From an uncultured Thermoplasmata archaeon (GTDB lineage Archaea > Thermoplasmatota > Thermoplasmata > UBA10834), in assembly GCA_963748615.1 (NCBI GenBank), contig CAVVJQ010000003.1:304599-368598 (forward strand): a stretch of 64,000 nt of DNA, written 5' to 3'. Positions 4,722-44,882 of the stretch are shown here, piece after piece. Position 1 is the stretch's first letter; each line of letters starts with the position of its first letter. A program made the position numbers and the translations under genes. A model generated the notes under the pieces. That model was given only the letters and a program-made list of their open reading frames with translations. It had not been told where the DNA came from and made no database searches.

Positions 4722-5046
4722 ACCCAGATATCGATCTCAGAGCTAGACTTGAGAGATGAAATGCTTCGCAATTCTAGCGTGGCACCATATCGCTCATCGG
4801 GGCATATGGAGTGCACCATAGAAATTCCATGCACGCATCGATGGAATTCATGAGGAAATCAGACAGTCATCGCTTGACCCGCCTTCGCCTGCTGTTGATG
4901 GATACATAAGCGCATTTGTTTTGGTAGCAAAAGAGATGAGAATAGGCTATTGCTTTTCACATTGGGTTTATATAGCATATTTCCTTTTCGAACGTAATGC
5001 ACCTAGTACTGACTCGGTGCCAACCGTGAGGGGGAATTGGACAATT

Positions 5047-7686
5047 ATGAGAGCTAGATATAGTGTGAAGAGAGCAGCAGCTATTCTGACATTCTTATTC
5101 GCGTTCGTACTCGTCGGGACCTCGCTCGGAGCGCTCAGCCTATTCGAGAACGCGTCTGCGGAAGACCTGCTGGGAATTGATGTTGACCGAACTTTCACTG
5201 TCGGCGTGGTGGACATGTCGATCTCCACGCTGAATCCGAACACATATGTGACTAGCAGCGAGGAAATGGTCATCGTCTCATGCTACAGCTCGTTGCTGCA
5301 ATACGATGAGGGCGGCAATGTGATAGGAGACCTTGCGAGGACTTGGACAACGGACCAGGACGGCCTCGTATGGCACTTCGACCTTGTGGATACGGCGTAC
5401 TTCTGCGACCCAATGGAACCGATTTCAAAAAACCACCAAGTCACTGCTGAAGATGTCATCTTCACATATGATAGCATCCAAGATGATGCCACCAGTCGAT
5501 TGCATTACGCTCTTCCGGACATCATTTCGGACATCTATTCTGAAGGGCAGTTCAGCGTGACAATTGAGCTCAGTCATCCATTCGCGGCGTTCCAGGATTC
5601 GCTCATCAATATCCCTATACTTCCCAAGTATGTCTGGGAAGGCGAGGACCTGACGAATTTTGACAACCTGCCGATGATTGGATCCGGGCCGTTCTACTAC
5701 GCAACTACGGGACTCCCTGACTCAGGCATCGTCGAGCTCAGAAAGAATCCCATCTGGCACATGACCGAAGAGCATGGATGGTCCATCAGGGTCGACAGAT
5801 GGCTCATCATAAACGAATTGGATACTAGCACGGCTTGGCTAGATGTATCACATGGCAACATAGATTGCATGTTGGATGTCCCAGGCAATGTATTCACATC
5901 CACACTTCCGATGCCGGAAGTCATAGGATTTCACCAGTCTGGAGGGTTTGTGTATGAGTTCAACCTCAACCAGATGACTGATGACATTAGAGAAGGTCTC
6001 GGAGGTCCCTTCAACGCAGGGACTAGTAACCAGCTGCTGCTTGACAGCACGGTCAAGATGGCTATTGCGATGAGTGTCGACAAGGACGCTTTTGTTCAAG
6101 AAGTGATAGATGGTTTGGGAGAGCCGGCGGATTCACTTATTCCTCATGCCAACCCATGGCACTTTGATTATCCAGACCCGATTCAATTCGACCCACTAGC
6201 AGCCAGGGAGATGCTGATGGACGCTGGATGGCGCTATGATATCACCGGAAACCAAGCATCCGAGAACACGGTTCCGTTATGCAAAGCTGGCGGGACGGAT
6301 CCCCTCTCGTTCAGGTTCTATACACTAAACACGGCCGTGCAATGGCAGATAGGTGCAGAGCTAATATTGAACTGGTGCCGCGAGACTGGGGTAGATCTCG
6401 ATCTGACATTCCTGAGCATTAACGAGATGAACACCGTGTGGAATTCCGCAGACTACGATCTTTGGTTGTGGGATTGGGTGTTCGATCCGCTCGGAGACCC
6501 ATCGATGAGCATACTCGAAGTGCTCACGACGGAAGCAATCGGTACCGACAGCGACGTGTTCTACTCCGACTCGACCTATGACGCACTTTACGAAGAGTCT
6601 CTCGTGACAATGGATCCTGTTCTCCGTGCACAGATAATCGATGAGATGCAGACAATGGCCTATGAAGACATGGGTTGCCAATGCATCGCCTACAGAGAAG
6701 ACCTGTACGCGTTCAACACTCAGCATTGGGAGAACTTCGGTGATCTGGACTCGAAGTATATGATGCGGCCTGATGTTTCCAACCTTTGGATATCCTTGAG
6801 CATGAGCCCTGTGGAAAACGCGGCACCCCATATCTATGTGCATTCGGATAACGTCGTCGCAGAGGTTGGCGAGGAAGTGGCCCTCTTCGTAGCCGCGACG
6901 GACGATGACGCTTCGACAGTGCTCGAATACAGATGGTTCTGGGGCGATGGCACTTCCAGCGATTGGAGCTATTCACCCACTGCCTCGCACACATATCTGA
7001 AGAACGGGGTGTATACCGCTGACATCGCAGTGAGAGAGGCATCCTCATCTAATGGGTATGACGACCACTTCGTCACGACCGCTGACCTGACTTTGGCCAT
7101 ATACGATTTCTCCAACGAAGCGCCTGTCATTCTCAGCATAATGTACAGCCCATTGGACCCGGATACATCCAATAGCGTCATGTTCTCTGCAGATGTCTAC
7201 GATTCAGAAGGAGATCCGTTGGAGTACTCGTGGAACTTCGGAGATGGCACTGGGGCGAAGGGACTGAGCGTGACACATGTGTTCCAGGAAGCTTCTGCAT
7301 ATCTTGTGACGCTGTCGGTGACCGACAATATGCTCGGAATCGGAACGAGACCTGCAACATGCTCGGTCCTCGTTATGATCGACTCGAACTTGCCTCCATC
7401 GTTATCGGTGCCTGATTTCGATCCGATAGCGCCCAAGACAGAGACGGAGTTCCATGTGTACGCGAGCGACCCAGATGGGGACCAGCTTATGTTCGTGTGG
7501 GACTGGGGAGATGGCACTTCGACTGAGACATATGAACCGTTTGCGACCCATTCGTACAACCGCGGCGGAACCTATGTCATCAATGTGATGGTCACGGATC
7601 TCACAGGCCTGTCAGGGCATGAGGTACGAGATACCGGAACGGTCTATGTGTACAGCGGCCAATCGAAACACGGCGGCACAAAGTGA
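5047..7686 (+). CDS. secreted family-5 solute-binding protein (Opp/Dpp-like) fused to C-terminal PKD domains
   Basis: Signal peptide MRARYSVKRAAAILTFLFAFVLVGTSLGALS. An SBP_bac_5-like domain is followed by at least 4 PKD repeats with WxFGDG/WxWGDG motifs (WFWGDGTSS, WNFGDGTGA, WDWGDGTST). A TATA-like tttatata lies about 70 nt upstream. The in-frame stretch upstream of 5047 has no signal-peptide logic. Confidence 0.75.
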   Translation: MRARYSVKRAAAILTFLFAFVLVGTSLGALSLFENASAEDLLGIDVDRTFTVGVVDMSISTLNPNTYVTSSEEMVIVSCYSSLLQYDEGGNVIGDLARTWTTDQDGLVWHFDLVDTAYFCDPMEPISKNHQVTAEDVIFTYDSIQDDATSRLHYALPDIISDIYSEGQFSVTIELSHPFAAFQDSLINIPILPKYVWEGEDLTNFDNLPMIGSGPFYYATTGLPDSGIVELRKNPIWHMTEEHGWSIRVDRWLIINELDTSTAWLDVSHGNIDCMLDVPGNVFTSTLPMPEVIGFHQSGGFVYEFNLNQMTDDIREGLGGPFNAGTSNQLLLDSTVKMAIAMSVDKDAFVQEVIDGLGEPADSLIPHANPWHFDYPDPIQFDPLAAREMLMDAGWRYDITGNQASENTVPLCKAGGTDPLSFRFYTLNTAVQWQIGAELILNWCRETGVDLDLTFLSINEMNTVWNSADYDLWLWDWVFDPLGDPSMSILEVLTTEAIGTDSDVFYSDSTYDALYEESLVTMDPVLRAQIIDEMQTMAYEDMGCQCIAYREDLYAFNTQHWENFGDLDSKYMMRPDVSNLWISLSMSPVENAAPHIYVHSDNVVAEVGEEVALFVAATDDDASTVLEYRWFWGDGTSSDWSYSPTASHTYLKNGVYTADIAVREASSSNGYDDHFVTTADLTLAIYDFSNEAPVILSIMYSPLDPDTSNSVMFSADVYDSEGDPLEYSWNFGDGTGAKGLSVTHVFQEASAYLVTLSVTDNMLGIGTRPATCSVLVMIDSNLPPSLSVPDFDPIAPKTETEFHVYASDPDGDQLMFVWDWGDGTSTETYEPFATHSYNRGGTYVINVMVTDLTGLSGHEVRDTGTVYVYSGQSKHGGTK

Positions 7687-7757
7687 CGAGGAGCCAGCAC
7701 CGAGACGCAAGAACCGTGTCCTCCGAAAAGACGTCTCATTAAGGGGCTGAGAAATGA

Positions 7758-7800
7758 GGGGGCCATAGCCCCCAACAAACCTCTTTTTCTCATTTTAACA
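7758..7800 (+). terminator. GC hairpin plus T-tract terminator downstream of the SBP-PKD gene
   Basis: gggggc-cata-gccccc is a perfect 6-bp GC stem. It is followed by aacaaacctctttttctcatttt. Confidence 0.5.
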
Positions 7801-7952
7801 TAAGACGAAAAGGGCGATGACCGCCAACCATCTGAACGCTCTCCTCGGAGTCATGACTGTCTTCGAAAATCCAAACGCATCATGTACAATGGAATGTGGG
7901 TAATGGGAATCGGGTACCACTTGGCAATCTCAGACGGTTGTGTCCTTGATCA

Positions 7953-8486
7953 TCATTTCGTGACATATCCTAATGGAAGAATCTTTGGCCCACTCCATTC
8001 ATCACGAAGGATGCTGTACATCGCGGTGTCCCTATAAGCACCTCTACTGAAGAATGATTTGCGTATCAGTCCCTCCATAGTGAATCCTGCCTTCTCTAGG
8101 ACCCTCTGAGACGCCTTATTGTCCGGATGCGTCTCGGCCTGGACACGCACTACAGCCTTGTGAAGGAACAGGTAGTCCACTATCATCTGCACGACTTCGC
8201 TACCGTATCCCTTGCCGCGCTCGTCCTTGATCAGCATGTAGCCTATTCCAAGACAGTCCTTCGATTTGAAGTGGCCGACGTATCCGATCTTGGTCCCATC
8301 CTTCTTCTCGACCAAATACCACTGTCCATCACCCCTGCCATCGTGTTGCTTTTCGAGATCTTCCAGAGATACCTGATCGAACGGCTCGAACTCACCAACG
8401 AAATCCACATCGTTCATCCATTGCTTAATCAGCGAGAGATCGCTCTTCTCGACAAGTTCCAGGTTGATCTTGTGACCTTTCAGCAT
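7953..8486 (-). CDS. GNAT family N-acetyltransferase (RimL-like)
   Basis: Acetyl-CoA binding motif region ...RGKGYGSEVV...QRVLEKAGF. Start moved to the internal Met MLKGHKINLE because the upstream extension is atypical. Confidence 0.7.
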   Translation of the reverse strand: MLKGHKINLELVEKSDLSLIKQWMNDVDFVGEFEPFDQVSLEDLEKQHDGRGDGQWYLVEKKDGTKIGYVGHFKSKDCLGIGYMLIKDERGKGYGSEVVQMIVDYLFLHKAVVRVQAETHPDNKASQRVLEKAGFTMEGLIRKSFFSRGAYRDTAMYSILRDEWSGPKILPLGYVTK

Positions 8487-8638
8487 ATGAGCCCATGGCT
8501 CAATCACAATCCGGCCAGATGAACCTTTCCACCACCATGCGTTACTAGAAGTTCTCCGAGCATTCGAGAAGTCGGAAAAAGGTCCGAGTTTCAATCCCCT
8601 CGATTGACCAAAAAGACGACTATACTAGCGATGTGTTG

Positions 8639-8760
8639 GAGTGGACCGAAGGGGATTTGAACCCACATTTTCGACTGGCTCGGCTGAAAACGGTACATAG
8701 TCCTTCCAGAATGGCATCTCGGGAGGGAGCGGAAAACTTGGTGGCGACCCATGGATTACA
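8639..8760 (-). repeat. tRNA-like element A: exact copy of tRNA-Ala 3' end (positions ~51-73 plus 3-nt trailer) with a ~95-nt conserved arm
   Basis: Bases 8639-8664 (gagtggaccgaaggggatttgaaccc) are identical to 12104-12129. The extended sequence is homologous to element B (10391-10500). No 5' acceptor strand complementary to TCGGTCC could be found. Confidence 0.55.
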
Positions 8761-8862
8761 TGTCAGCCGAATAGTTTAAATGCCATCCTTCAATCGAACA
8801 GCCAGCAGCACCATCCGAGAGAGCGGCTCAACTCCGCACGAAGGGGTCTGCACGGTGATATC

Positions 8863-10215
8863 TTGAAGAAGACAGATGTTCTAGTTGTTGGAGGCGGGCC
8901 CGCTGGCAGCCTCGCGGCGATGACAGGAAAGGCAAGCTTCCCTGACAAGGAATTCATTATCATGAGCAACGAGACCCATTCCATGGTCCCGTGCGGAATA
9001 CCGTACATATTCGGTACCTTGAACGGGGTGGAGAAGAATCTTCTTCCCAGCGGGAGGTTCGCTAATGCAGGAATCGGACTCATCACGGGAGAGCTCACCT
9101 CGATTGACAAGGAAGCGCGCATCTGTGAGATGGCAGACGGGACCAAGATAGGTTACGATCGCCTTGTTCTCGCGCTTGGCTCATTCCCAGTCGTCCCGAA
9201 GTGGCTCAAACAGACGGACCTGAAGAACGTGCACGTGGTCAAGAAAGAGAAAGAACACTTAGATATGCTCTTCGAATCCCTGCAGGAACTGAAGAAGATC
9301 GTAATCGTTGGTGGAGGTTTCATTGGCGTGGAACTCGCCGACGAGCTTAACAAAGCAGGCAAGGATGTGACCGTCGTCGAGATACTCCCACACATACTGG
9401 GTCTGGCGTTTGACCAGGACATTGCGACGGAGATTGAGAAGATTATCACACAGAGAGGGGTCAAGCTCAGAACAAGCATGGGGACCAAACAGATTCTCGG
9501 CACGGATAAGGTAGAGGGTGTGCTGCTTGAGAATGATGAGAGGTTGGAAGCTGACGCCGTAATACTTGCAGTAGGATACAAACCGAATACAGCGGTTGCG
9601 GAACTCTCGAAGATATCACTCAACGAGATGGGGTTCATACGTGTGGATGAGTACATGCGCACCGAGGATTCCAACATCTATGCCGTTGGCGACTGCGCAG
9701 AGAAGCGAGACTTCTCGACCAGGAAAGTATCCGGTCTCATGCTAGCATCGACAGCGTCTACCGAGGCAAGGATAGCGGGCATGAACCTCTATGGACTCTC
9801 CGTCGTGAAGGCATTCAAGGGCACTATCGCGATATTCTCAACGGCCATTGGGGATCACGGATTCGGTTCGGCAGGTCTCACCGAGACCGTAGCCAAGCGA
9901 GAGGGATTTGAAATCGTCACGGGTGTATTCGATGGCGTCGACAAACATCCGAGCACACTTCCTGGAGTGCACAGGCAGCTGGTCAAACTGGTCGTTGCGA
10001 GGGACTCCGGCGCAATACTGGGCGGCGAAGTCCTATCCGGGACGAGCGCAGGGGAGATAGTCAACCTGATCGGTTTCATGATCCAGAACAGAATGACCGT
10101 CGACGCAGTCCTGAGCTCCCAGATAGGAACACATCCACTGCTTACGGCTCCACCCACTGCGTACCCTCTGATCAAGGCGGCCGAAAACGCTGCTAGGAAG
10201 ATACGCGGTCCTTGA
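8863..10215 (+). CDS. FAD-dependent pyridine nucleotide-disulfide oxidoreductase (NADH oxidase / CoA-disulfide reductase type)
   Basis: N-terminal FAD-binding motif VVGGGPAG, a single redox-active Cys motif SMVPCGIPY, and a second NAD(P)-binding fold GGGFIGVELA. TTG start. TATA-like tttaaat at ~8773. Confidence 0.8.
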   Translation: MKKTDVLVVGGGPAGSLAAMTGKASFPDKEFIIMSNETHSMVPCGIPYIFGTLNGVEKNLLPSGRFANAGIGLITGELTSIDKEARICEMADGTKIGYDRLVLALGSFPVVPKWLKQTDLKNVHVVKKEKEHLDMLFESLQELKKIVIVGGGFIGVELADELNKAGKDVTVVEILPHILGLAFDQDIATEIEKIITQRGVKLRTSMGTKQILGTDKVEGVLLENDERLEADAVILAVGYKPNTAVAELSKISLNEMGFIRVDEYMRTEDSNIYAVGDCAEKRDFSTRKVSGLMLASTASTEARIAGMNLYGLSVVKAFKGTIAIFSTAIGDHGFGSAGLTETVAKREGFEIVTGVFDGVDKHPSTLPGVHRQLVKLVVARDSGAILGGEVLSGTSAGEIVNLIGFMIQNRMTVDAVLSSQIGTHPLLTAPPTAYPLIKAAENAARKIRGP

Positions 10216-10390
10216 AGCGTTGCAGTTCACGAGATGCGACAAGATCATAGTCCGTTAGCATGCCAGTGCTGAGACTCGTGAGAAGTGATCTATACGATCC
10301 TATTTGGGTTCGCAGAGTACCGACAATCACTTACTCAATTCATCCAATCTAGTGCAGGTCCCCTAACAGCAGGGTTCCTCATCGAATAGT

Positions 10391-10500
10391 TGGCCGAAAG
10401 GGATTTGAACCCATATTCTCGACTGATTAAACTCAAGAAGGCACATGGTCATTCCAGAAAGGCGCCTCAGGAATGGTAGCTGGAATGAGGATCGGACGAA
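10391..10500 (-). repeat. tRNA-like element B (diverged paralogue of element A)
   Basis: Ends with GGGTTCAAATCCCTTTCGGCCA (T-arm/acceptor-3'-like). The remaining ~90 nt align with element A (shared blocks cattccagaa, catg, tcgactg). It sits just upstream of the catalase gene. Confidence 0.45.
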
Positions 10501-10566
10501 CCAGTACATATCTGCCGAGAGATGCAAATACCCATAACGCGTTCACAAGTTGGGGAGGATTGGAGG

Positions 10567-12081
10567 ATGACCGGTAGAAAGAGGAAGAAGAGCCTCACGA
10601 CAGCTTTCGGGAGACCCGTGGGAGATGACCAGAACAGCGAGACCGCAGGGACACGTGGCCCGGTGTTGATGCAGGATGTCCACCTGCTTGAGAAGTTGGG
10701 ACACTTCGACAGAGAACGCATACCGGAGAGGGTAGTCCATGCCAAAGGAGCGGGTGCCAGCGGATACTTTGAGGTCACAGCCGATGTCACTGAGTACACG
10801 AAAGCTAAGTTCCTCTCCAATGTTGGCAAGCGGACCGATGTCTTCGTGCGATTCTCCACCGTAGGAGGCGAGAAGGGCTCGGCGGACTCTGAGCGTGACC
10901 CAAGGGGGTTCGCGATCAAGTTCTATACCGAGGAGGGCAACTACGATCTGGTGGGTAACAATACACCGGTATTCTTCATAAGGGATCCGCTAAAGTTCCC
11001 GGACTTCATCCACACGCAGAAGCGCAACCCTGCAACGAACCTCAAGGACCCAAACATGTTCTGGGACTTCCTCTCGCTCACCCCAGAATCCATCCATCAG
11101 GTGACTATCCTCTTCTCTGATCGCGGCACTCCTGCGACTTACCGACACATGAATGGATACAGCAGCCACACTTACAAATGGCACAATGCGAAGGGAGAGC
11201 AGTTTTGGGTGAAGTACCATCTCAAGACAAATCAAGGCATAAAGAATCTAACAAGGCAGGACGCTGAAGCGATGCGCGCTAAGGATCCAGACCACGCGAC
11301 CAGAGATTTGTACAACGCGATTGCCCGAGAGGACTATCCCTCATGGACTCTGGAGATTCAGGTCATGGGGGTCTCCGATGCGAAGGACTATCGTTTCGAC
11401 GTGTTCGACATAACGAAGGTTTGGCCCCATGGAGACTACCCAGCCATCAGGGTTGGAGAGCTGGTGCTGAACCGCAATCCCGAAAACTACTTCGCAGAGG
11501 TCGAGCAAGCTGCATTCGCCCCCAGCAACCTCGTCCCAGGAATCGCTCCTTCGCCAGATAAGATGCTCCAGGCACGTCTGTTCTCATATCACGACACACA
11601 CATACACAGGCTCGGGCCCAACTACCACCTGATACCGGTCAACAGCCCGAAAAACGCACTCGAAATGAGCTACCAGCGTGACGGGTCCATGCGCGTTGAT
11701 TCGGGCGGGGGGTCCGGCCCGAACTACTGGCCCAACACATTTGGAGGACCAGCACCAGATATTGCCAGTAAGGATCCGCCCTTCGCGGTGAATGGGGACG
11801 CGGGCAGGCACTCCTACACTCATCCGAATGACGATTTCGTACAGCCAGGAGACCTGTACAGGAAGGTTATGACCGATAAGGATCGGGAACACCTAGTGGG
11901 GAACATCGTGAGCCACCTCGGAGGAGCGCAGAAGAGGATTCAGCTCAGACAAACCGCTCTGTTCTTCAAGGCGGATGCCGACTATGGCAGAAGGGTAGCT
12001 GATGGCCTTGGCATCGATTTGAAGGTGGTCGAGAGGTTGGCAGGGATGACTCAGGAGGAAAGAGTCACTGAAACCAGCTGA
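10567..12081 (+). CDS. katE: monofunctional heme catalase
   Basis: [23 protein letters not shown] is the catalase active-site signature with the distal His. Full-length clade-3-like catalase. Start set at [15 protein letters not shown], the conserved catalase N-terminus. Confidence 0.9.
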
Positions 12082-12106
12082 GACGTCGGAAACGACAAAG
12101 TCCGAG

Positions 12107-12178
12107 TGGACCGAAGGGGATTTGAACCCCTGACCTCCTGCTTGCAAAGCAGGCGATCTTCCGCTGATCTATCGGCCC
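12107..12178 (-). tRNA. tRNA-Ala (anticodon UGC)
   Basis: Cloverleaf: acceptor GGGCCGA/TCGGTCC with a G3:U70 pair, the Ala identity element. D-stem GATC/GATC. Anticodon stem CCTGC/GCAGG with loop TTTGCAA. T-arm AGGGG-TTCAAAT-CCCCT. Discriminator A; CCA not encoded. Confidence 0.8.
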
Positions 12179-12523
12179 CTGCGGGATGGGGGCTCATTGG
12201 CCGTTTCGGTTAAATATCTTTCCTGGCACGGGTTCTGTATGGTTATTGGATGGTGTTGTTGATGGTGTCTTTTTCCGGTGCCACAAGTATCCCACACATC
12301 GCACATGTAATGTGCATATAGCCGCGGGGGGGATGTGACCATGGCCAGATGCTTCCTTCGATGCTCCACAGAGCAGTCGTGTTCCAGCGTGACGCGGTGA
12401 TGACCCTCTTCGACCCAGAGACGGGCGCACGGTCGGAGCCGAATGGAACGAGTCAATTGGTCCGGCGGTCATTAGGACCACCACCCGATAATCGACAGGA
12501 CCCTCGGACCAAACCTCATCGGA

Positions 12524-13690
12524 TCAGACAGATGAGAACACACAGGTGTCAGACCCGGTGGCTATACATGAGATTTCCCTGATGATGACCTTTCGTCCCA
12601 CGGCTCTCGTGACCAGTTCGCTCAGGATCGGCTCGAGGAACCTGCATATGGTATGATCGAAGCGGACGCAGCATCTTGCGAACACGGATTCGATACTGAT
12701 GGTGGTCTCTCCACTGGCCATGTCAATCCGATCTAACGAGTAGAAAGTCGCCCATCCGCTCCGAACCAGCGTCTGCAGGCCACGGTCGATGACCTCCCTA
12801 CCCTGCCCAGAGACATCCTTCGGTCTCAAGGGCACCATTGATTCCAGCATCGCATAGAGTTCCTGCACACCTTTGGCGGATGATTCATGATACTTGGCGA
12901 ACATCGAGGCTAGTCCCTGGATATCGGCTTGGACAAGTAGCGGGGAATCCGATGCCAATTGGCTGGAAGATGATGAATCCGAGGACGGACTGCCTCCTCC
13001 GAATGAGAATGATTCGGGTTGTTGACTTGCGCTGCCCCCTCCACCAGACATCGCATGACCATCACCGCGGTCTTCTCTGCGGAGCTCTTCAGGCTTTACA
13101 CGTCTGTGCCGTCCATCCTCCTTGCCTCTATCATATTCTGCATCCAGTTTTCGGAGGACCCCCAATCCTTGGGCGAGGGACATTAGTTCCTTTCGTTTTG
13201 AGCCCACCCATCCGACCGTCTCCATATGTCCGTAATAACCGACCTCCACCCCCAGTTCGTACCCTTGCTTGAATAAAGAGGTGACTGCTTTTGAAACAGT
13301 GGATCCTGAGGCGGACCTGAGTCTATCATCCCTGAGGGCGTCCTTCATCGCCCGCAACAATTCCTTCCCTTCGAAAGGCTTCGAGATGAAACCAACAGCA
13401 CCTCTTGCCAACGCTATTTCCTTTATCCTGGAATCTGCGCTAAGGAACAGGACCCTCGCAGACGGGTCAGTGGCGAGTATCTCATCCATTGCCTCGATAC
13501 CACTCTTGACCGGCATCCTGTGGTCCATTAGAATCAGGTCGGGTTTGGGTGAGAGTTCAAGGTACTTCTTGACCGCGGAGTCCCCGTCGAAGGCGAACCC
13601 CACCACGTCGAAACCCTTCAAAGAGAGTGTGTCCCTGAGTATCTGGACTATAAGCTTCTCGTCATCGACTATGAGTATCCTCGGTGGCAC
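12524..13690 (-). CDS. response regulator, receiver domain plus C-terminal V4R domain
   Basis: CheY-like receiver (LIVDDE...DLILMDHRMP...K). Gly/Ser-rich linker. C-terminal Cys-containing V4R-like domain (CCVRFDHTICRF...SCIATGSDTC). GTG start abuts the HK stop codon. Confidence 0.7.
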   Translation of the reverse strand: MPPRILIVDDEKLIVQILRDTLSLKGFDVVGFAFDGDSAVKKYLELSPKPDLILMDHRMPVKSGIEAMDEILATDPSARVLFLSADSRIKEIALARGAVGFISKPFEGKELLRAMKDALRDDRLRSASGSTVSKAVTSLFKQGYELGVEVGYYGHMETVGWVGSKRKELMSLAQGLGVLRKLDAEYDRGKEDGRHRRVKPEELRREDRGDGHAMSGGGGSASQQPESFSFGGGSPSSDSSSSSQLASDSPLLVQADIQGLASMFAKYHESSAKGVQELYAMLESMVPLRPKDVSGQGREVIDRGLQTLVRSGWATFYSLDRIDMASGETTISIESVFARCCVRFDHTICRFLEPILSELVTRAVGRKVIIREISCIATGSDTCVFSSV

Positions 13691-15769
13691 CTAACCACCT
13701 CGTAGAAGCAATATCGAGACCTTTGTGCCTTGTGTCCAATCGCCCTGCACGCGATTAGATATGGATATCTGGCCGCGCGAGCGCTCGATGATCATCTTCG
13801 AGATGAAGAGACCCATGCCAAAACCGCGTTTGATCTCCCAGTAATCCTTTGACGGCTTGAGCAGGTTGGGCTTGACATCGTCTGGAATGCCTGTCCCCCT
13901 GTCCTCTATGACAACCTCCAAATAGCCATGTCGGTGAGGAGATTCCGTCAAAGATATGGTCACATCTATGGATTCGGTGACGGTATTCTCGATGGAGTTC
14001 ACCAGTATGTTCTCGATGGCCACCTCAATCTTTGAATCGGCCAGCGCGATGGCATGAGGCGTGGCGGGATCGAAATCGATGGAGATTGCCTGGTCATCCC
14101 CCGCGCCCGTCATTTGCCTTGCGATGAGATCCATGATTGACTGCGCGAGATCGACCTCGACCATAGCGGTGGGTTGCTGGCTAACCCCGGTCAGCTCGCG
14201 AAGCCTCTCGATCATCGTGGATATGACCCGCACCTGTTTCCTCATATCCTGTGCATGTTGCCGGACTGCATCTGGTGTCTCGGCATTGTCCTCGATGAGC
14301 TCACTGAAGGACATCAATGCCGTGGAGTAGTTTGCTATATCGTGGCACAATAGATCGAGGTAGGTCGCCGATTCTCCCCTTGCCCGTTCCGCCTCGCTCA
14401 GCATCTGCATCCTCTGGACAGCGTATGCAAGCGTGTTCGCCTGTATCTTGAAGAATATCTTAGCTTGGTCGTCGAACGGTGAGTGGTCCTGGGACAGCAG
14501 CAGAACATATCCAAGCACATGTGGCCCTGATGTCATCCGCGCCCATATCCCAGAGGACATGCCAGAGGACTGCAGGACCTCCGACACGAGAGGCGAACCA
14601 GCACACTCCACAGATTCAAAACCAGAGGAATCCTGAGAGGGAAATAGCGAGGTCGGCTCGATTCCACGGGAATCATCAAGAGATATTGGTGTGCCTTCGA
14701 GCAGGCCGAACTTGGATTCGAGAAACAACCTGCCAAAGTCGGAGTCCATCAAGTATATCATGCCGGCATCGGCACAGAACGAGGTCGTCAGTGCGCGGAT
14801 GGCATTGTCCAGGAGTTCCTGCATGTTCTCCGCGGAGGACATCACCCATAGCAGGTCGGTCATCGATGAGCGTTCCCTATCGAGTTCCCCCAGCTCGGAC
14901 ATGTCCCTCATCATCACCAAGATGCTTGAGACAGAGCGGTCCGGAGCGATCATGGGTGCGATGCTGACATCATACACCATAGCCTTTGCGGATTGGTCAT
15001 CGGCGACTATTCTGACCGGAAGGAACCTGTTGTGTGTGGATCTCTTCGTGACACGGCACGATTCGATCATATCCATCAATGATCCAGTATCCGCGGCCTG
15101 GAAGACTTCCATGAACGGCTTTCCCATGACTCCACTATGAGGTCCCCCGGGAGGCATATACTGCAAAAGGTGTGAATTATGGTTGATTATCCGGAGATCC
15201 GAATCCAGCTCGATTATGGCCATGGGAGCGCTCTCGATCAGATTCTTGGTCCTCTGGAGAAGATCCTCGATCATCCTACCGCGGGCGATCACTTCCTGCG
15301 ACGATCGCATCCGCTCAGAGATATCACGACAGAAGCTGTCGATCCCGACGATCCGGCCGTCCTCGGACCTCAGAGGTATTGCGCTATGTTCCGTCCATAG
15401 GACGGAACCGTCCTTTCGCATCATGCGAGCAACAGCGGGCTCGGTATATGGCACGCTACCATCGAGGAGGCCAAGGAATATCGGCAAGTCATCGGGATGA
15501 AACAGGCTCGGCAAAAGGTTCGGGTTGGCATGGAAATCCTTTGGAGAGTGGCCTAACAATGTTTGACATGAAGGGTTGATGTACATCGTCCGAGGTTCTG
15601 GAACCGCCAGATGCCTGAATATGACATCCCTGGAATTCTCCACCAAGAATCGGAACGTCGCATGATGGTCTCCAGACTGATGGCCATGAGACCCGGCCCC
15701 ATCATCTGCTCGCTCTGCCCCCATGTATGACTCCTTCGTTTTGACCACGCAATTTCCGGAATGCATCAC
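13691..15769 (-). CDS. sensor histidine kinase (PAS/GAF sensors, HisKA, HATPase_c)
   Basis: H-box region LLCHDIANYSTAL. C-terminal ATPase motifs (N, G1 DRGTGIPDD, G2 GFGMGL). Immediately upstream of the response regulator gene. Confidence 0.8.
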   Translation of the reverse strand: MMHSGNCVVKTKESYMGAERADDGAGSHGHQSGDHHATFRFLVENSRDVIFRHLAVPEPRTMYINPSCQTLLGHSPKDFHANPNLLPSLFHPDDLPIFLGLLDGSVPYTEPAVARMMRKDGSVLWTEHSAIPLRSEDGRIVGIDSFCRDISERMRSSQEVIARGRMIEDLLQRTKNLIESAPMAIIELDSDLRIINHNSHLLQYMPPGGPHSGVMGKPFMEVFQAADTGSLMDMIESCRVTKRSTHNRFLPVRIVADDQSAKAMVYDVSIAPMIAPDRSVSSILVMMRDMSELGELDRERSSMTDLLWVMSSAENMQELLDNAIRALTTSFCADAGMIYLMDSDFGRLFLESKFGLLEGTPISLDDSRGIEPTSLFPSQDSSGFESVECAGSPLVSEVLQSSGMSSGIWARMTSGPHVLGYVLLLSQDHSPFDDQAKIFFKIQANTLAYAVQRMQMLSEAERARGESATYLDLLCHDIANYSTALMSFSELIEDNAETPDAVRQHAQDMRKQVRVISTMIERLRELTGVSQQPTAMVEVDLAQSIMDLIARQMTGAGDDQAISIDFDPATPHAIALADSKIEVAIENILVNSIENTVTESIDVTISLTESPHRHGYLEVVIEDRGTGIPDDVKPNLLKPSKDYWEIKRGFGMGLFISKMIIERSRGQISISNRVQGDWTQGTKVSILLLRGG

Positions 15770-16029
15770 AGGGGGGATCTCAGCGCCCCTTCTCGAACCA
15801 CCCTCGGCTCGGATAAATGCGCGAACGGCTCGTTATGTCAACGACGATGTCAAATAAGTTGTCCGTTGGGTCTCATACCTGAAAATCATCGGAGACAACT
15901 GTATCGAAGGAAAACAATGGGAAAGAGCGCGCGAATAGGATGTCGCGAGCGATTCAAGGGATGCCCTGAAACAATTCAAATCGAGAAATCAGTTTACATG
16001 ATGTGCATTTAAATCGCACAGGGTCGATA

Positions 16030-29937: not shown

Positions 29938-32900
29938 TCAGAGATTCTGGTCTTCCGGAGGCGCTGGTTCCTCCATCGCGATACCATCGACACCAGAGTC
30001 GTTCGCACCGGACGACTTGCCACCCTTGCCCTTCTTCATAAACATTATGGCAAGAAGAGCGACAATCGCAAGCGCTGCCACGATTCCAATCGGGAGACCG
30101 TACTGCTCGATGAATGTCTTCTCATCGTCGTCGACTGGTTCCTCATTGATCGTGACGCTTACTGTCGCCTCATCAGTCTGGCCGGAACCGTCCCTGACCG
30201 TCAGGGTGACATCGTATGTGTCCGCTACATCGAATGTGAACGAGAACGATGCAGTGTATCTTGTCACTGTAGCATCCTCGTACACGAACGTCCAGGTGTA
30301 GTTCACTATGCCGATATCATCAGATGATCCAGTGCCGCTGAAGGTAACCGATGTCCCGACTGTCGCTGATGCAGGTGTCACTGTCGCAACTGCTGTCGGA
30401 TCTGCATCCGTAGAAGACGCCTCCACGGTGACCGTCACAGTTGTGGTGTCGTAGTTCCCGGCAGCATCTGTCACATTCAAGGTCACGATGTAGGCACCTG
30501 CGATGTCGAACTCGAACGAGACCGTCGCACCATCCAACGATACCGGAGCACCGTTGTAGGTGAAAGTCCAAGTGTAGCTATCGATACCCACATTGTCAGT
30601 CGAAGTCGTTCCAACGAATGTGACTGTCGCTCCTGCATCGACCTCTGTCGCGCTAGCGGAAGCATCAGCAACGGGAGACTGTGTATCCAAGACCGTCACC
30701 GTCACTGTCGCGGTGTCGCTGTTCCCTTCGTCGTCGGTCACTGTCAAGGTTATCTCGAATACTCCAGCGTTCTCGAAGGTGTATTCGACTGTCTCGCCGA
30801 TCAATTCGACTGCCACGCCGTCGGTGAAGGTCCACACGAAGTCCATCTCATCGTCGTAGTTGTCGCTGGACCCAGATCCATCCAGAGTCACCGTCGCATC
30901 CATATCGACTTCAGATTCGGAAGCTTCTGCGACCGCGACTGGAGCTTCTGTGTCACGAACGATTATGTCTATCTCGTCGGAGCCCTCGTTGTCCATCGCA
31001 TCCTTGGCCACAAGGGTCACAGTGTACGAACCGGGCGTATCGAACTGGTAGGACATGGACTCACCATAAAGGGTCACGATGACCTCATCCACCAGTGTCC
31101 AAGTCCAATTGACCACATCGACATTGTCACTTGAGCCGGATCCATCGAATGTGACTGTATCACCCATGTCAACATCCATGTCATCGGCCACTGCAACAGC
31201 GGTTGGGTCCGTTGCATCAGTGATCGTGACTGAGACCACATCTGGATCAGACTCCTGATCAATGGTGTCACGGACCACCAGGGTCACTGTGTATGTACCG
31301 ACATCCAGGAATTCGTACTCCGGCTGCGAACCGTACAGCGTGACCGACAGCTCCTCGATCACCCAGGTCCAGTTGACGACAGGGCCTGCATCATCGGAAG
31401 AACCCGTGCCATCGAACATGACGAGTTCATCCTCGGGTGCGGTTATGTCTTCACCTGCATCTGCGACGGGTGGAGCATCCGCCACGACCTCAATCGTTGC
31501 GGACGCGCTCACGTTGTGGCTCATTCCATCATCGACATATACCCGGCAAGTGTGCGTTCCGATTGTGTCGTACGCGTAGTCTACATCCTGACCAACAAGG
31601 AGGACGCTACCGTCGTCGTAGAAGTCCCACGTGTATGTCAGATCATCTTCGTCAGGATCGCTGGCATCTGCGTAGTATCCAGTCGTTTGACCTACAGCGA
31701 CAGTCTTGTCCGCGGGGTAGGTCGTGAATTCCGGCTCATAGTTGATGCCTGCAGGGCGGACGGTCGTCTTCGCACTGCTGGTCACATTGTGACTCGACAG
31801 CGAGAAGCCGTCATACACCCATACCTGGCGAGTGTAGTTGCCGACGACGGTGTATGTATGGGTTATCGAATTGCCGACGAAGTACCCTGTGCCATCGCCA
31901 AAGTCCCATGTGTATACGAGCGCTTCACCATCTGCATCAGTCGCGACTGCAGTGTACGTACGAGAGACATCTTGCGTCACGTTGATCCAGGTCAATGAAT
32001 TCAATACAGGTTTAGCGTTGATGAACGCATATCCTGCGGCAGATTCATTGTAACCCTTATTATCATCGGCCCACACCCGGTACACGTATCCATCCTCAGC
32101 TGAGGATTGGGTGTAGGTATGCGTAGTTGATCCACTCGTTGTCACAGATACCTTCTCATCGCCCCAATACCAGGTGTACTTCAGAGAGTCAGAGTTGGGG
32201 TCGACCACATCGACGGAGAACGAGGTCGCCTCATTTGTCGTACCGTATACCGTTGCAGGGTCCTCCTGGAATTCTGGAGGATCATTTGGCAGAACGACCA
32301 CGGATAGCTCAGATGAGACATTCGCTGCGCCGTCGGATGCATGCATATACACAGTGTGGGTTCCAGCAGCCTCATACGAGTGGGTGGTCGAGCATTCGAC
32401 CACCGAACCGGTTCCCGCAAAGTGCTCCACATAATAGCTTCCGTCACCGAATTCGAAGGTTATCGTCAACGGGTCTTCGTCCTTGTCGCTCGCGAGTCCG
32501 ACGAATACCAGGTCTTCACCACAATATGTAGCAGCGGGCGTTGAGTCCGTTATGGTGAACCCCTGGATGACCGGAACCTTGTTCGACATCGTGATGACGC
32601 TCACAAGTCCCGAATCCGAGACATTGTGATTATCCAGACCCGTCAGATCATCTACCCACACCGTCAGCGTGTACGTTCCTCTCGAATTGTAGGCATGGTC
32701 CGCTGATGAAGTGGTCGTGACGGAGAATTCCCCGTCGCCCCAATACCACGTATACCGCAGTTCATCCCTAGAATCTGGGTCGCTCGCCGTCGCGGTGTAA
32801 GTGTAGGTCTGCTTCGCGATCTTGTTCGCGTAGTCGGGAACCGTCACGGTTGGAACCCTGTTGGAAGTGACCGGCACATAGGCGTATCCCATCGTCGGCC

Positions 32901-35322
32901 TGTCGACCGCACCGATGTGCTTGTCATCGACAGAGACTGATACCGTAAAGGATGTCGCCGTGAGGAATTGGTGCGTGACCGTCTGTCCACCCAATATGCC
33001 TCCATCGCCGAAGTTCCATGTGTAGTAGAGAGTGTCGGCCTCCTCGTCGGTAGCGACACAAGAGAAGGTTATCTCAGTACCAGTGTCGGGATCGACTGGA
33101 TCAACGATGATCTCCTGGATGACCGGCTCGGCATTGGTCATATCCCTGACAGTGACCGTCGCCTTGGTCCATGTCATGAAGCCATCATCGAATCCATTAG
33201 ACAGACCATTCTCATAGACAGCGATGTAGACAGTGTATACACCGTCCGCATCATATGTGTGAGACATCGAAACGGTCCCGGTTTCATCAACGAGCACATC
33301 GGACGTCGCGCTGCCATCGCCCCAGAACCACTTCATTCTGAGCGGGGTCGTGTCATCATCATCGGAGACAGTAGCGCTAAACCCATTGATCGGTGTATTC
33401 ATGTCACCAGTCAGGGCAGCAGTGTATCCGTTGAATTGAGGAGCCTCATTGTCGGTCGGCTGCACCCTCATTCCGAGGTACTGGAATGTGACATCCGGAA
33501 GCAGCATGTAGGTGCTGTTCCAGTCACCGTAGTTCGACCAGTACTTCGTGCTAGCTGCGTACAGATCCTTCCTGAAGGCAATGCATTGGCAACCCATGTT
33601 CTCGTATGCCATCCTCTGCATGTCGTTTACAATCTCACGCCTGATCGAGGGATCCATGGTAACGAGACTCTCATTGTACAATGCATCGTAGGTCGCGTTC
33701 GACCAGTACACATCACTGTCTATGCCGATCGAATCGGTCGTCAAGACAGACAACACGCCAGTACATGGATCGTTCAATGGACCGAATATCCAGTCCCACA
33801 GCCAGATGTCGTAATCGGCTGCGTACCAGTAATTGGTCAATGTAGTACCGCTCACAAGCTCCAGATTGAGCTTGATACCGGCATCCTCCGTCCAGTTCAC
33901 AATCATTCTGGCGCCCTCTTCCCACTCTGTGGCAGAGTTGAGACTGTAGAACCTGAATTCGAGCGGATCGCCGAATCCACCAGTCGGCAGCGCCCTGTAC
34001 AATGGACACGTGTCGTCGGTCGCGGCCTTCCCCAGCGCATCATACTTCCAACCCGCATCGTTCAAGATAACACGAGCAGCAGCGGGGTCGAATGGAATCT
34101 GACTCTCACCATCTACGCTACCGTACTCGTAGTACCAAGGATTCACGTCAGGGACCAGAGATGTGGCAACGCTTCCGAGATCCTCCAACACTTCATGTAT
34201 GAAGTTGGGTTTATCAACGCACATCGCAATCGCCAGCTTGACCTCGTCTATCAGCAGCAGCTGGCTGTTCGTTCCACTCTTGGTAGTGCCGCCGAGCTGT
34301 GCTCTGAGATCATCGGTCATCTGGTTGAGGTTGAACTCATAGACGAATCCTTGGCTCTGGGCGAATCCAAGGACATATGGCGTGACATCCGCCTCGGACA
34401 CGTAGACCGAGGGGGAGACGCCGAGCATGACATCGATCGTACCGTCCTTGACATCCTGCCATGCAGTGCTCGCTTCGAGTTCACCCACGATGAAAAGCTG
34501 ATCTATATGCATCTGCCACCCACAGTTCTCTTCCATATACCAGTTCGGATTCCTTCGGAGCTCAACTGTGTTGGTAGTCGGCAGGCCGTCAGTGGCGTAG
34601 TACCATGGGCCTGAACCCACTGGGGGCAGATTGTCGAAATTCTGAGGGTTAACAGTCTCCCATATGTACTTCGGCAGAATCGGCATTGTGAATATATCGT
34701 TGTACGGTGCATATGGCTTGCACAATGTGAGAATCATCTCGTAATCGTTAACCTTTACCATCGAACCAACCGCATCGCCCATGCTTCCGTGGAGTCGGCT
34801 CAGATCGTTGTCCTGATACATCCACAACGACCATATCACATCGTCTATCGTGAGGTGTCTTGACTCCTTCACGATAGGGTCGGTGGGGTCAGGATCAGTT
34901 GGATCGCAGAAGTAGACGTTATCCCATATTTTGAAATTCCATGTCAATCCATCAGGGGTAGAACTCCATTCGTAAGCAAGATCCCCGATGACGTTATTGT
35001 CCACATCTCTTTGAAGAAGCGCGCTGTACAAACTCCAAATCACCATGGCCTCGGCCATCCAGGTATATGTATTCGGATTCAGAGTTGATATCGTCAGCTC
35101 ACCGCTCAGGCCCACCACAAATTGGCTTCGCTCGCGTTCGGCCGCGCTCGCCTCATCAACAATCTTCACGGCATCTCCGCCTGTAAGGAAGGACGGGATA
35201 CCGACCATCAATATCGCCAGGACAACTGCGAGTAGAGTCTTGGTCGCTCTTGCCCTGAATATGTTCCTACTCTTGCCAATACTATCCATCATTGATTCCC
35301 CCATTCGTACATCAGATTCCAA
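29938..35322 (-). CDS. giant membrane-anchored surface protein: signal anchor + family-5 solute-binding (Opp/Dpp-like) domain + ~12 PKD domains + C-terminal TM and short cytoplasmic tail
   Basis: 1794 aa. N-terminal TLLAVVLAILMVGIPSFL. An SBP_bac_5-like ~600-aa domain paralogous to the 5047-7686 product. Repeated WxFGDG/WxWGDG and VNWTW PKD motifs. Thr/Val-rich stalk. C-terminal LPIGIVAALAIVALLAIMFM followed by KKGKGGKS. TATA-like element ~65 nt upstream. Confidence 0.85.
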   Translation of the reverse strand: MESDVRMGESMMDSIGKSRNIFRARATKTLLAVVLAILMVGIPSFLTGGDAVKIVDEASAAERERSQFVVGLSGELTISTLNPNTYTWMAEAMVIWSLYSALLQRDVDNNVIGDLAYEWSSTPDGLTWNFKIWDNVYFCDPTDPDPTDPIVKESRHLTIDDVIWSLWMYQDNDLSRLHGSMGDAVGSMVKVNDYEMILTLCKPYAPYNDIFTMPILPKYIWETVNPQNFDNLPPVGSGPWYYATDGLPTTNTVELRRNPNWYMEENCGWQMHIDQLFIVGELEASTAWQDVKDGTIDVMLGVSPSVYVSEADVTPYVLGFAQSQGFVYEFNLNQMTDDLRAQLGGTTKSGTNSQLLLIDEVKLAIAMCVDKPNFIHEVLEDLGSVATSLVPDVNPWYYEYGSVDGESQIPFDPAAARVILNDAGWKYDALGKAATDDTCPLYRALPTGGFGDPLEFRFYSLNSATEWEEGARMIVNWTEDAGIKLNLELVSGTTLTNYWYAADYDIWLWDWIFGPLNDPCTGVLSVLTTDSIGIDSDVYWSNATYDALYNESLVTMDPSIRREIVNDMQRMAYENMGCQCIAFRKDLYAASTKYWSNYGDWNSTYMLLPDVTFQYLGMRVQPTDNEAPQFNGYTAALTGDMNTPINGFSATVSDDDDTTPLRMKWFWGDGSATSDVLVDETGTVSMSHTYDADGVYTVYIAVYENGLSNGFDDGFMTWTKATVTVRDMTNAEPVIQEIIVDPVDPDTGTEITFSCVATDEEADTLYYTWNFGDGGILGGQTVTHQFLTATSFTVSVSVDDKHIGAVDRPTMGYAYVPVTSNRVPTVTVPDYANKIAKQTYTYTATASDPDSRDELRYTWYWGDGEFSVTTTSSADHAYNSRGTYTLTVWVDDLTGLDNHNVSDSGLVSVITMSNKVPVIQGFTITDSTPAATYCGEDLVFVGLASDKDEDPLTITFEFGDGSYYVEHFAGTGSVVECSTTHSYEAAGTHTVYMHASDGAANVSSELSVVVLPNDPPEFQEDPATVYGTTNEATSFSVDVVDPNSDSLKYTWYWGDEKVSVTTSGSTTHTYTQSSAEDGYVYRVWADDNKGYNESAAGYAFINAKPVLNSLTWINVTQDVSRTYTAVATDADGEALVYTWDFGDGTGYFVGNSITHTYTVVGNYTRQVWVYDGFSLSSHNVTSSAKTTVRPAGINYEPEFTTYPADKTVAVGQTTGYYADASDPDEDDLTYTWDFYDDGSVLLVGQDVDYAYDTIGTHTCRVYVDDGMSHNVSASATIEVVADAPPVADAGEDITAPEDELVMFDGTGSSDDAGPVVNWTWVIEELSVTLYGSQPEYEFLDVGTYTVTLVVRDTIDQESDPDVVSVTITDATDPTAVAVADDMDVDMGDTVTFDGSGSSDNVDVVNWTWTLVDEVIVTLYGESMSYQFDTPGSYTVTLVAKDAMDNEGSDEIDIIVRDTEAPVAVAEASESEVDMDATVTLDGSGSSDNYDDEMDFVWTFTDGVAVELIGETVEYTFENAGVFEITLTVTDDEGNSDTATVTVTVLDTQSPVADASASATEVDAGATVTFVGTTSTDNVGIDSYTWTFTYNGAPVSLDGATVSFEFDIAGAYIVTLNVTDAAGNYDTTTVTVTVEASSTDADPTAVATVTPASATVGTSVTFSGTGSSDDIGIVNYTWTFVYEDATVTRYTASFSFTFDVADTYDVTLTVRDGSGQTDEATVSVTINEEPVDDDEKTFIEQYGLPIGIVAALAIVALLAIMFMKKGKGGKSSGANDSGVDGIAMEEPAPPEDQNL

Positions 35323-40537: not shown

Positions 40538-40647
40538 CGCGGGGAGGGGGATTTGAACCCCCGAACTCTTTCGAGCACTGGATGTTTGCCTGTCCCATCT
40601 GGGACGAGATAGCAATCCAGCGCCTTGCCGGGCTGGGCCATCCCCGC
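40538..40647 (-). tRNA. tRNA-Ser (anticodon GCU) with 26-nt intron after position 37
   Basis: Acceptor GCGGGGA/TCCCCGC. Anticodon stem CTGGA/TCCAG with loop TTGCTA|intron|A. Long variable arm TGCTCGAAAGAGTTC. T-arm GGGGG-TTCAAAT-CCCCC. Discriminator G. Confidence 0.75.
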
Positions 40648-40956
40648 ATCGATGGCGCATAATAGAACGCCGTTCTTTAATAGTTTGTATCATGGAGCAG
40701 GCCCTTGGCCGAGCGTCTAGCTCTGCAATGACACCTGCCCGATCATGGAACTAGTAGAGTCGTTCAGGATATAGGCAATGTAGTCGACATCCGAATCATG
40801 CGCTCCAGCATCAGTTGCGCGAGAGAAGATTCGTGATGACTCAGTAAATGGCTCGCGAGTCTTGCTGCATCGAGGAACAGCTCAATCGCAGCATACGGAC
40901 ATGAATTAGTTATATTCACGATGCATTTCCAAATAGGACATGTGAGGTGGGACGTG

Positions 40957-43179: not shown

Positions 43180-44646
<1,467 letters not shown>

Positions 44647-44882
44647 TACGCAATCAACGGAGGGGAACTACCCCTCCAACCAGATTTGCAGAAGAAGGCA
44701 TGGTTCCAAGACCTGGAACGCAACTGTCTGCCATCGAACGACCATCATAACTTTTTCATTCACATCGATCAGCTTCAGCTCTTTTGACATTGAACCTGAA
44801 AAGTGCGAAAACGCTCTTGAGCCAATGGATCAAGAAGATAAAACGGTAAGAGGTTTAATGGGTTTTATCTCGACTTCCACCA

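Follow-up and report, generated by a model that had tools for sequence, protein, structure and literature searches.

Copies of a tRNA-Ala 3' end beside the NADH oxidase and catalase genes of an uncultured Thermoplasmata archaeon as probable junctions of successive integrations

Integrative elements and islands that target tRNA genes are recognized by their attL and attR junctions, an intact tRNA gene standing at one end and a direct repeat of the 3' part of this gene, from the T-arm to just past the tRNA, at the other. A comparable arrangement is found in the stretch of DNA analysed here, 64,000 nt of contig CAVVJQ010000003.1 (GenBank assembly GCA_963748615.1) from an uncultured Thermoplasmata archaeon, which is referred to in its full length as the window. 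Two tRNA-like elements on the minus strand, A (8639-8760) and B (10391-10500), both found where a preliminary description had placed them, lie upstream of nox, encoding an NADH-oxidase-type flavoprotein, and of a catalase gene, respectively. We conclude with good confidence that successive site-specific integrations into the 3' end of tRNA-Ala(TGC) have left A and B behind as attR-type junctions; on the best-supported reading a decayed third copy, C, is a junction of the same kind, and nox and catalase are captured cargo.

As in the tRNA-targeting elements, an element-derived arm adjoins the distal copy of the tRNA 3' end and empty sites occur in close relatives; unlike them, the locus has no integrase beside the tRNA or in the island, and its units, of 0.9-1.75 kb, hold a single gene each. 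The integrase-less, decayed cis-mobilizable elements (CIMEs) of bacteria, derived from integrative and conjugative or mobilizable elements (ICEs/IMEs), and the tandem accretion of ICEs and IMEs in Streptococcus (PMC5704250) offer a second parallel, as att sites are kept there without integration or transfer genes and tandem arrays grow as elements integrate again and again at the end of a single target gene; the hosts here, in contrast, are archaeal and the units are compact and single-gene. In the tRNA-adjacent tycheposon islands of Prochlorococcus newcomers push older elements inward (10.1101/2020.12.28.424599), full and partial tRNAs flank the elements and the cargo is environmentally adaptive, in likeness to our locus, but tycheposons have a tyrosine recombinase and replication genes of their own, and integrase fragments occur in their islands; nothing of this sort was seen here. 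Gene capture by SSV-type integrases in archaeal chromosomes, as treated in the review PMC8371274, which cites She et al. (2001, 2004), and also in PMC7253208, shares with the present case the archaeal chromosome, the tRNA gene overlapping the att site and the fixation of integrated DNA as host genes, and differs from it in the split int(N)/int(C) pair, which was sought here and not found. The same review documents integrase-less and tandem integrated elements in archaea.

The resemblance to integrons is of another kind. Both form arrays of compact one-gene cassettes, each ending in a conserved recombination element of about 60-130 nt, with one fixed proximal insertion site and with cargo unrelated between cassettes. 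In our case, however, the proximal site is a tRNA 3' end, and the cassettes have promoters of their own and either orientation; no IntI gene or attI site was found beside the array, whose neighbours are the S10 gene or a two-component system on one side and an Na/H exchanger on the other. The repeat, moreover, is not an imperfect palindrome of attC type: it has no significant fold under RNA energy parameters and contains two short inverted repeats only. Partial tRNA repeats serving as att sites, tandem accretion and integrase-less elements are well known in general, and the family and hotspot described below add a specific case to them; a limited literature search, aimed only in part at this lineage and no proof of novelty, turned up no description of either in Thermoplasmata.

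The array behind tRNA-Ala(TGC) and the same locus in close relatives

Read on the minus strand, A (8760 to 8639) and B (10500 to 10391) each close with the 13-mer GGGTTCAAATCCC followed by (C/T)TTCGG(T/C)C(C/A)A. The 13-mer occurs four times in the window, against 0.06 occurrences expected, namely in A, in B, in an intact tRNA-Ala(TGC) gene 3.5 kb from A (12106-12178) and in an intron-containing tRNA (40538-40647). The T-arm and 3' acceptor-like ends pointed out in the preliminary description are indeed present, and they are copies of the 3' end of the nearby tRNA-Ala, which had gone unnoticed. The features of the locus, in which "core" denotes the tRNA-derived part of an element and "arm" the part adjoining it, are as follows.

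12106-12178, minus strand: intact tRNA-Ala(TGC), anchor of the array in the role of attL/attB (ARAGORN; Rfam tRNA, 70.1 bits at 12107-12178; 100% identical in the relative L060)
10567-12081, plus strand: catalase, cargo next to the tRNA (Pfam Catalase, E = 8e-198)
10503-10533, plus strand: catalase promoter region, operator-like motif AGTACATATCTGCCG at 10503-10517, then TATA-like GCAAATA at 10524-10530
10413-10490, minus strand: arm of B, diverged type I, belonging to the catalase cassette (nhmmer match 10389-10490, E = 4.9e-19, model positions 27-128)
10387-10412, minus strand: core of B, partial copy GGGTTCAAATCCCTTTCGGCCAACTA of the tRNA-Ala 3' end (85% identity to the tRNA)
8863-10215, plus strand: nox, NADH-oxidase-type flavoprotein, cargo of the second cassette (Pfam Pyr_redox_2, Pyr_redox, Pyr_redox_dim)
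8755-8784, plus strand: nox promoter region, operator-like motif ATTACATGTCAGCCG at 8755-8769, then a TTTAAA box at 8774-8781
8665-8735, minus strand: arm of A, type I, belonging to the nox cassette (nhmmer match 8640-8735, E = 7.8e-29)
8639-8664, minus strand: core of A, repeating the final 23 nt of tRNA-Ala without change, plus CTC (100% identity)
7953-8486, minus strand: GNAT acetyltransferase, cargo of the third, older cassette (Pfam Acetyltransf_3)
7718-7785, minus strand: element C, decayed left half of a type I element (hairpin and first half of the arm), closing the GNAT cassette (nhmmer E = 1.3e-4, model positions 1-69)
4722-12105, no strand assigned: variable island from the tRNA-Ala 3' end to the Na/H-exchanger gene (7.4 kb; empty or differently filled in relatives)

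The core of A, its final 26 nt, is identical to 12104-12129 and comprises the last 23 nt of tRNA-Ala (12107-12129), which run from base 3 of the T-stem 5'-strand to the discriminator base, with 3 nt of flank. Together with the core of B and the tRNA-Ala 3' end it forms direct repeats in the same orientation, spaced by 1748 and 1717 nt. A and B can be aligned without gaps over 85 nt at 76% identity, and their similarity does not come from the tRNA alone: with the 26-nt core removed, the arms give a local alignment score of 39, which was reached by none of 2000 dinucleotide shuffles (mean 15.3, standard deviation 2.3, maximum 28). Consequently, the similarity over about 90 nt claimed earlier holds as homology of the arms beyond chance; its leftmost part is due to a separate operator-like motif, which lies outside the repeat family and is considered below. 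No similarity was found between the arms and the 5' two-thirds of tRNA-Ala. An inverted partial T-arm copy, GGGGATTGAAAC, is situated at 8588-8605, about 40 nt downstream of the core of A, and gave spurious weak Rfam matches (mir-961, CRISPR-DR18).

In the sense of the tRNA the array reads tRNA-Ala, catalase with B, nox with A, GNAT with C, a gene for an SBP_bac_5/PKD protein (4921-7686), and the Na/H exchanger, both catalase and nox being antisense to the tRNA. The position of the elements upstream of the two genes was described correctly, and their orientation was not: since nox and catalase are on the plus strand and the elements on the minus strand, A and B are divergent from them, with about 128 nt between the arm of A and the nox start codon and about 77 nt between the arm of B and that of catalase. 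The other spacers measure 24 nt (tRNA end to catalase stop) and 171 nt (core of B to nox stop). Core copies bound each of the three units, those of catalase, nox and GNAT, which contain one non-mobility gene apiece, and with intergenic gaps of 24-171 nt these cassettes leave no room for remnants of a recombinase. The third copy, C, which the preliminary description did not contain, lies just beyond the GNAT gene and includes a terminator-like hairpin at 7758-7773; the likely start of GNAT is the ATG at 8486, the longest open reading frame (ORF) extending to 8594. Base composition does not mark the island.

Nine relatives with 90-93% DNA identity, one of them labelled Thermoplasmata UBA10834, were gathered by exact-sequence look-up of the ribosomal protein S10 encoded in the window (L-numbers here and below denote comparison loci from metagenome-assembled genomes, MAGs, and metagenome contigs). 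Their common backbone consists of the genes for S12, S7, the elongation factors EF-2 and EF-1alpha, S10 and tRNA-Ala(TGC), followed by the Na/H exchanger, an ABC transporter and DUF362. The site behind the tRNA is empty in L060/62/63, L064 and L067, where the exchanger follows tRNA-Ala at about 640-660 nt and no copy of arm or core was detected at E<=0.05 in the approximately 650 nt after the tRNA. It is occupied by a 10.7-kb island of 11 other genes in L061/L069, and in L068 by three small Zn-ribbon genes closed by an arm of type II and a perfect core. In L037 the order is S10, tRNA-Ala (98.7%), an unrelated 445-aa membrane-protein gene, a type I element, a GNAT gene and, at 2824-2877, the other half of a decayed element copy; the GNAT protein of the window is 82% identical in amino acids to this one and stands in the same position after an element copy. 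The contigs L065 and L066 stop exactly at the 3' end of the tRNA.

The 5' side of the tRNA (12179-16029 in the window) is variable as well, because the gene content between S10 and the tRNA differs among the relatives: a histidine kinase (13691-15769) and a response regulator with a V4R domain (12524-13690) are present in this interval only in the window and L061/L069, a 183-aa gene is found there in L060/62/63 and L065, and none was called in L064, L066, L067 and L068.

The repeat family and its breakpoints

For the family search, a pattern drawn from the arm-core junction was run on MAGs, metagenome contigs and viral contigs. Further copies of A and B, of which the preliminary description knew none, are present in Thermoplasmata MAGs and metagenomes, at least 14 of them distinct. 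The element, designated type I, turned up in 14 metagenome contigs and, among Thermoplasmata MAGs, in two (L001-L003); the metagenome contigs with full copies are of freshwater or wetland origin. Nine further metagenome matches (L022, L026, L028, L029, L031, L034, L038, L039 and L043) proved to be ordinary bacterial tRNAs, and the matches in viral contigs (L004-L020) ordinary phage tRNAs; both sets were discarded.

A full type I element is about 128 nt long and is composed of a G+C-rich hairpin, a run of T, an arm of about 75 nt and the 23-nt tRNA-Ala core. Full copies agree with the consensus at 88-97% identity, and the DNA that flanks them is unrelated from one copy to the next; they always border small, unrelated gene units, and many of them stand at contig ends, as is expected of a repeat. 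An nhmmer profile built from 15 copies of other genomes, with the window sequences left out, matches A, B and C with the E-values listed above. The arm of A shares 97.8% identity with the copy in L001 and 89% with that in L037. In A and B the first 30 or so positions of the family element are missing; they have no hairpin part, and its place is taken by the promoters of nox and catalase.

L068, L051 and L061/L069 have an arm of a second type, about 65 nt long, attached to the same tRNA-Ala core. Its sequence, AAGGGGTTTAGCTCCGGTCAATTCCCCGCTGATTGAACCCGAGTCGTGACACACTGGCTTCTCAG, lies at 4811-4900 in L068, at 1639-1727 in L051, and at 7787-7812 and 8419-8477 in L069; tRNA identity begins 4 nt further 5' in type II than in type I. 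In every case the repeated tRNA segment has its start at the T-stem and extends to 0-3 nt beyond the tRNA. The family of arm and core flanks genes for carboxypeptidase, HEPN, Zn-ribbon, membrane and GNAT proteins, mostly at the 3' ends of the genes, the arm remaining 88-97% conserved beside unrelated cargo and the adjoining non-coding DNA being unalignable.

Many of the small cassette genes, often those of Zn-ribbon or membrane proteins, are preceded at about 45-60 nt by a 20-nt motif, GAAAAGGCCATAGGGGCGGA. It occurs at 1571 and 3134 in L001, 6515 and 6870 in L002, 4493, 3753 and 1287 in L003, 954 in L024, 1084 in L035 and 523 in L037, and at three sites in L068 (about 3770, 4270 and 4490); it is also found directly after tRNA-Ala in L037 and after tRNA-Gly in L002. 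It is absent from the 64-kb window, though the backbone DNA of L068 is about 93% identical to the window. The idea that it is the P' arm of the element was dropped, as it often follows cores and tRNAs but also precedes internal small genes and is missing from the window; it looks like a promoter or a cassette-start signal.

Several pairs of loci share sequence on one side of the core only. L042 and L027 are 98.8% identical as far as the final base of the core, after which they are unrelated; L042 and L040 are 91% identical up to the core and diverge after it; L024 and L030 are identical across the element and diverge after it. In L051, whose nox is 96% identical to that of the window, the match to the window extends from the nox promoter across the gene and its 3' flank to 10411, within the core of B, beyond which a type II arm and a different gene take the place of the arm of B and catalase. 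In L061 tRNA-Ala is immediately succeeded by the flank CACCTACGCATAGCCAGACAAAT; the same flank recurs behind the element core in L001 and L042, and behind that of A in the window a more diverged version of it is present. Each arm moves together with the gene that adjoins it on the side of the tRNA, and the sequence beyond the core is part of the following unit. Such shared flank and core breakpoints represent the attB/attR relationship expected of site-specific integration.

Integration history and competing explanations

The suggestion that A and B are tandem att-site scars with conserved integrase arm sites, one of several made in the preliminary description, is the one that the comparison supports, through the direct repeat of the tRNA-Ala 3' end, the arm family, the empty or differently filled sites of relatives and the breakpoints at the core, all of which are observed directly. 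A direct repeat of the tRNA 3' end bounds the DNA that follows the intact tRNA, and the DNA so bounded is absent or different in close relatives; an element-encoded integrase was found neither in the window nor in the two complete islands nor in the vicinity of the copies.

The incoming unit would presumably be a small circle bearing the cargo gene and an attP site, that is, the conserved arm with a copy of the T-arm and 3' acceptor strand. Recombination within the 23-nt core, catalyzed perhaps by a tyrosine-type recombinase acting in trans and located most likely at the TTCAAAT loop between the inverted GGG and CCC, would insert the unit right after the tRNA; the tRNA 3' end would be rebuilt from the unit's own copy, and arm and core would be left at the distal end of the unit. 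Later units would insert beside the tRNA and push the older ones outward, which would set the probable order of arrival. We infer the crossover in the T-loop and the rebuilding of the tRNA 3' end because the core, with inverted GGG and CCC around the 7-nt TTCAAAT, has the form typical of a tyrosine-recombinase site. The elements would appear just upstream of nox and catalase because the captured cargo lies antisense to the tRNA, its promoters abutting the arm.

Several observations weigh against this history. Searches of the cargo and flanking ORFs of the window and the comparison loci against Pfam, NCBIfam, PHROGs and PDB revealed no recombinase among the ORFs of 120 aa or longer in the 64-kb window, no integrase in the complete 10.7-kb island of L069 and no recombinase near any of the approximately 20 scanned copies (cargo and flanking genes). 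Patterns of the arm, the core and the arm plus core brought up no free or circular form and no viral contig with arm or core. The core of B has 3 mismatches in 23 nt (4 in the 26-nt block) though its cassette is the nearest to the tRNA, so that a diverged source attP or subsequent decay has to be assumed, and no att copy can be recognized where the island ends distally, at the Na/H exchanger. Additionally, copy b of L032 (1702-1827) is 99% identical to copy a of L025, while the two copies of L025 itself (109-234 and 1701-1826) are 87% identical to each other, which suggests that element copies exchange sequence by gene conversion or recombination; homologous recombination between the repeats therefore contributes and could mimic some of the breakpoints.

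Integration at tRNA-Ala may have proceeded in two ways. Possibly, though doubtfully, the units are stumps of large integrase-carrying viruses or plasmids that inserted at tRNA-Ala and were reduced to one gene and an attR, no dedicated system of small cassettes being involved. Archaeal integrated elements without integrase and tandem integrations at one locus are documented (PMC8371274), decayed arm fragments do exist (C, L037 2824-2877, L001 3078-3125 and the remnants in L069), and one cargo gene (L001 1831-3099) matches virus protein families of unknown function. Such reduction has to contend, however, with at least ten independent units of 0.6-1.7 kb that hold one or two intact genes each, with spacers of 24-171 nt and no pseudogene debris, with two complete islands free of integrase fragments, and with the conservation of the arm next to unrelated cargo and unalignable non-coding DNA. 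Considering the compactness of the units, the lack of integrase debris in two whole islands and the presence of one arm on many unrelated genes, we lean toward small cassettes moved in trans rather than stumps of larger elements. A bolder proposal, which we put forward tentatively and hold to be possible rather than likely, is that type I (about 128 nt) and type II (arm of about 65 nt) are the recombination sites of a native Thermoplasmata cassette system, in which promoter-bearing single-gene cassettes are inserted and shuffled on a platform formed by the 3' end of tRNA-Ala(TGC) by a recombinase encoded elsewhere in the genome.

The tRNA 3' end could also have been copied with no site-specific recombinase at all, by local segmental duplication or by gene conversion, a reading that could draw on the ability of copies to homogenize one another, as in L032 and L025. 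It is nevertheless very unlikely, since it leaves unexplained the same arm and core on unrelated genes in many genomes, the empty sites of close relatives, and the constant ends of the repeated segment, from the T-stem to 0-3 nt past the tRNA.

A shared cis-regulatory or leader module of oxidative-stress genes, as considered in the preliminary description, would fit the position of both elements just upstream of genes whose products detoxify O2 and H2O2. Between each arm and its gene there are indeed a shared motif, ACATRTCWGCCGA, the nox copy matching the catalase copy, and a TATA box; the corresponding plus-strand sequences are ACATGTCAGCCGA and ACATATCTGCCGA (8755-8784 and 10503-10533). This module, however, stands beside the elements and is separable from them: the motif is kept upstream of catalase in L044, L045, L047 and L050, in none of which an arm or core is adjacent, and upstream of nox in L051, L052/55/57 and partly L058, again with no arm or core next to nox, while the family of arm and core flanks unrelated genes, usually at their 3' ends. 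A regulatory role of the elements themselves is thus hardly probable, and the part of the proposal that stands is the pair of similar promoters. From its sequence and distribution, ACATRTCWGCCGA is a candidate operator of an oxidative-stress regulon.

That the arms are int(N) fragments derived from "suicidal" integrases of the SSV type, which integrate by disrupting their own gene, was considered on account of a short ORF, MPFWKDYVPFSAEPVENVGSNPLRST... (MPFWKDYVPF...), which starts in the arm and reads through the core and whose conserved ATG is preceded in full copies, at about 27 nt, by a TATA-like box. This is highly improbable: in none of about 20 copies does the ORF lead into an integrase, in-frame stops interrupt it in some copies that are well conserved, the differences fall on codon positions 1/2/3 in the proportion 22/30/21 with no excess at the third position, no int(C) was found after tRNA-Ala in the window and nine relatives, and type II arms are without such an ORF.

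The last suggestion, that A and B are functional RNA genes, whether split or permuted tRNA 3' halves, other highly unusual tRNA genes or a small-RNA family, could appeal to the perfect T-loop and 3' acceptor sequence, to the strong conservation of the family and to the same TATA-like box, and is extremely improbable, as A and B retain only the T-arm and 3' acceptor strand and lack the first 30 or so positions of the family, ARAGORN and Rfam (gathering score, E<=10) call no tRNA and no other RNA family in agreement with the missing cloverleaf noted earlier, every copy has a mismatch at the T-stem pair 50:64, the acceptor part differs freely from copy to copy (for example TTCGGTTCA, TTCGATCCA, TTAGGTCAA) or is replaced outright, no partner in the form of a complementary leader or 5' half was found within the window, single sequences fold on both strands no better than shuffles (z = 0.5 and -0.2, RNA energy parameters), the covariation term of RNAalifold for the family alignment is 0.01, and an intact tRNA-Ala(TGC) is present.

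Cargo, neighbouring features and significance

Catalase homologues with 80-87% identity are distributed over Thermoplasmata, Methanosarcinales/ANME-2, Spirochaetes and Desulfovibrio-type bacteria, and in five relatives the gene has five different contexts. In the complete MAG genome CP070748.1 (L044) a catalase orthologue with 87% identity is convergent to a tRNA-Ala isoacceptor, CGC (11655-11728). The stretch of about 40 nt behind this tRNA is similar to the sequence that L024 has after its type I core (about 180-221). The exact catalase protein of the window, with either start codon, is encoded by no contig in the look-up collection. Homologues of nox with 96% (L051) and 86% identity also stand in other contexts, those with 86% without the element.

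The SBP_bac_5/PKD gene inside the island (4921-7686, 921 aa), which is absent from the relatives with an empty site, is one of two in the window that encode large SBP_bac_5 proteins with PKD repeats, the other being at 29938-35322 (1794 aa). The intron-containing tRNA-Ser mentioned in the preliminary description corresponds to a 110-nt tRNA with an intron at 40538-40647 on the minus strand, scored by Rfam at 44 bits and missed by ARAGORN; besides sharing the GGGTTCAAATCCC T-arm, it neighbours a 598-aa ORF (40921-42717) to which no Pfam family was assigned. An archaeal small-subunit rRNA gene stands alone at 43180-44647, and since large-subunit and 5S rRNA were detected nowhere in the window, the rRNA genes are unlinked.

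Taken together, a puzzling "tRNA-like element" is replaced by a concrete and testable history, in which the only catalase and NADH oxidase of this stretch, which belongs to an anaerobic lineage of Thermoplasmata, were horizontally acquired and stacked singly behind tRNA-Ala. Close relatives with nothing or with other genes at the same spot give a direct view of the gain and loss of oxygen tolerance in such archaea, and the operator shared by nox and catalase is a candidate entry point to an uncharacterized archaeal oxidative-stress regulon. The conserved recombination element, with its two arm types and one core, can be used to search these genomes for variable islands, and two complete islands free of integrase raise the question of which recombinase moves such compact units. 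If the tentative cassette system proves true, it would be a functional analogue of integrons, arm and core acting as attC and the tRNA end as attI, and it would be an integron-like system that shares with integrons neither the integrase neighbourhood nor the folded attC.

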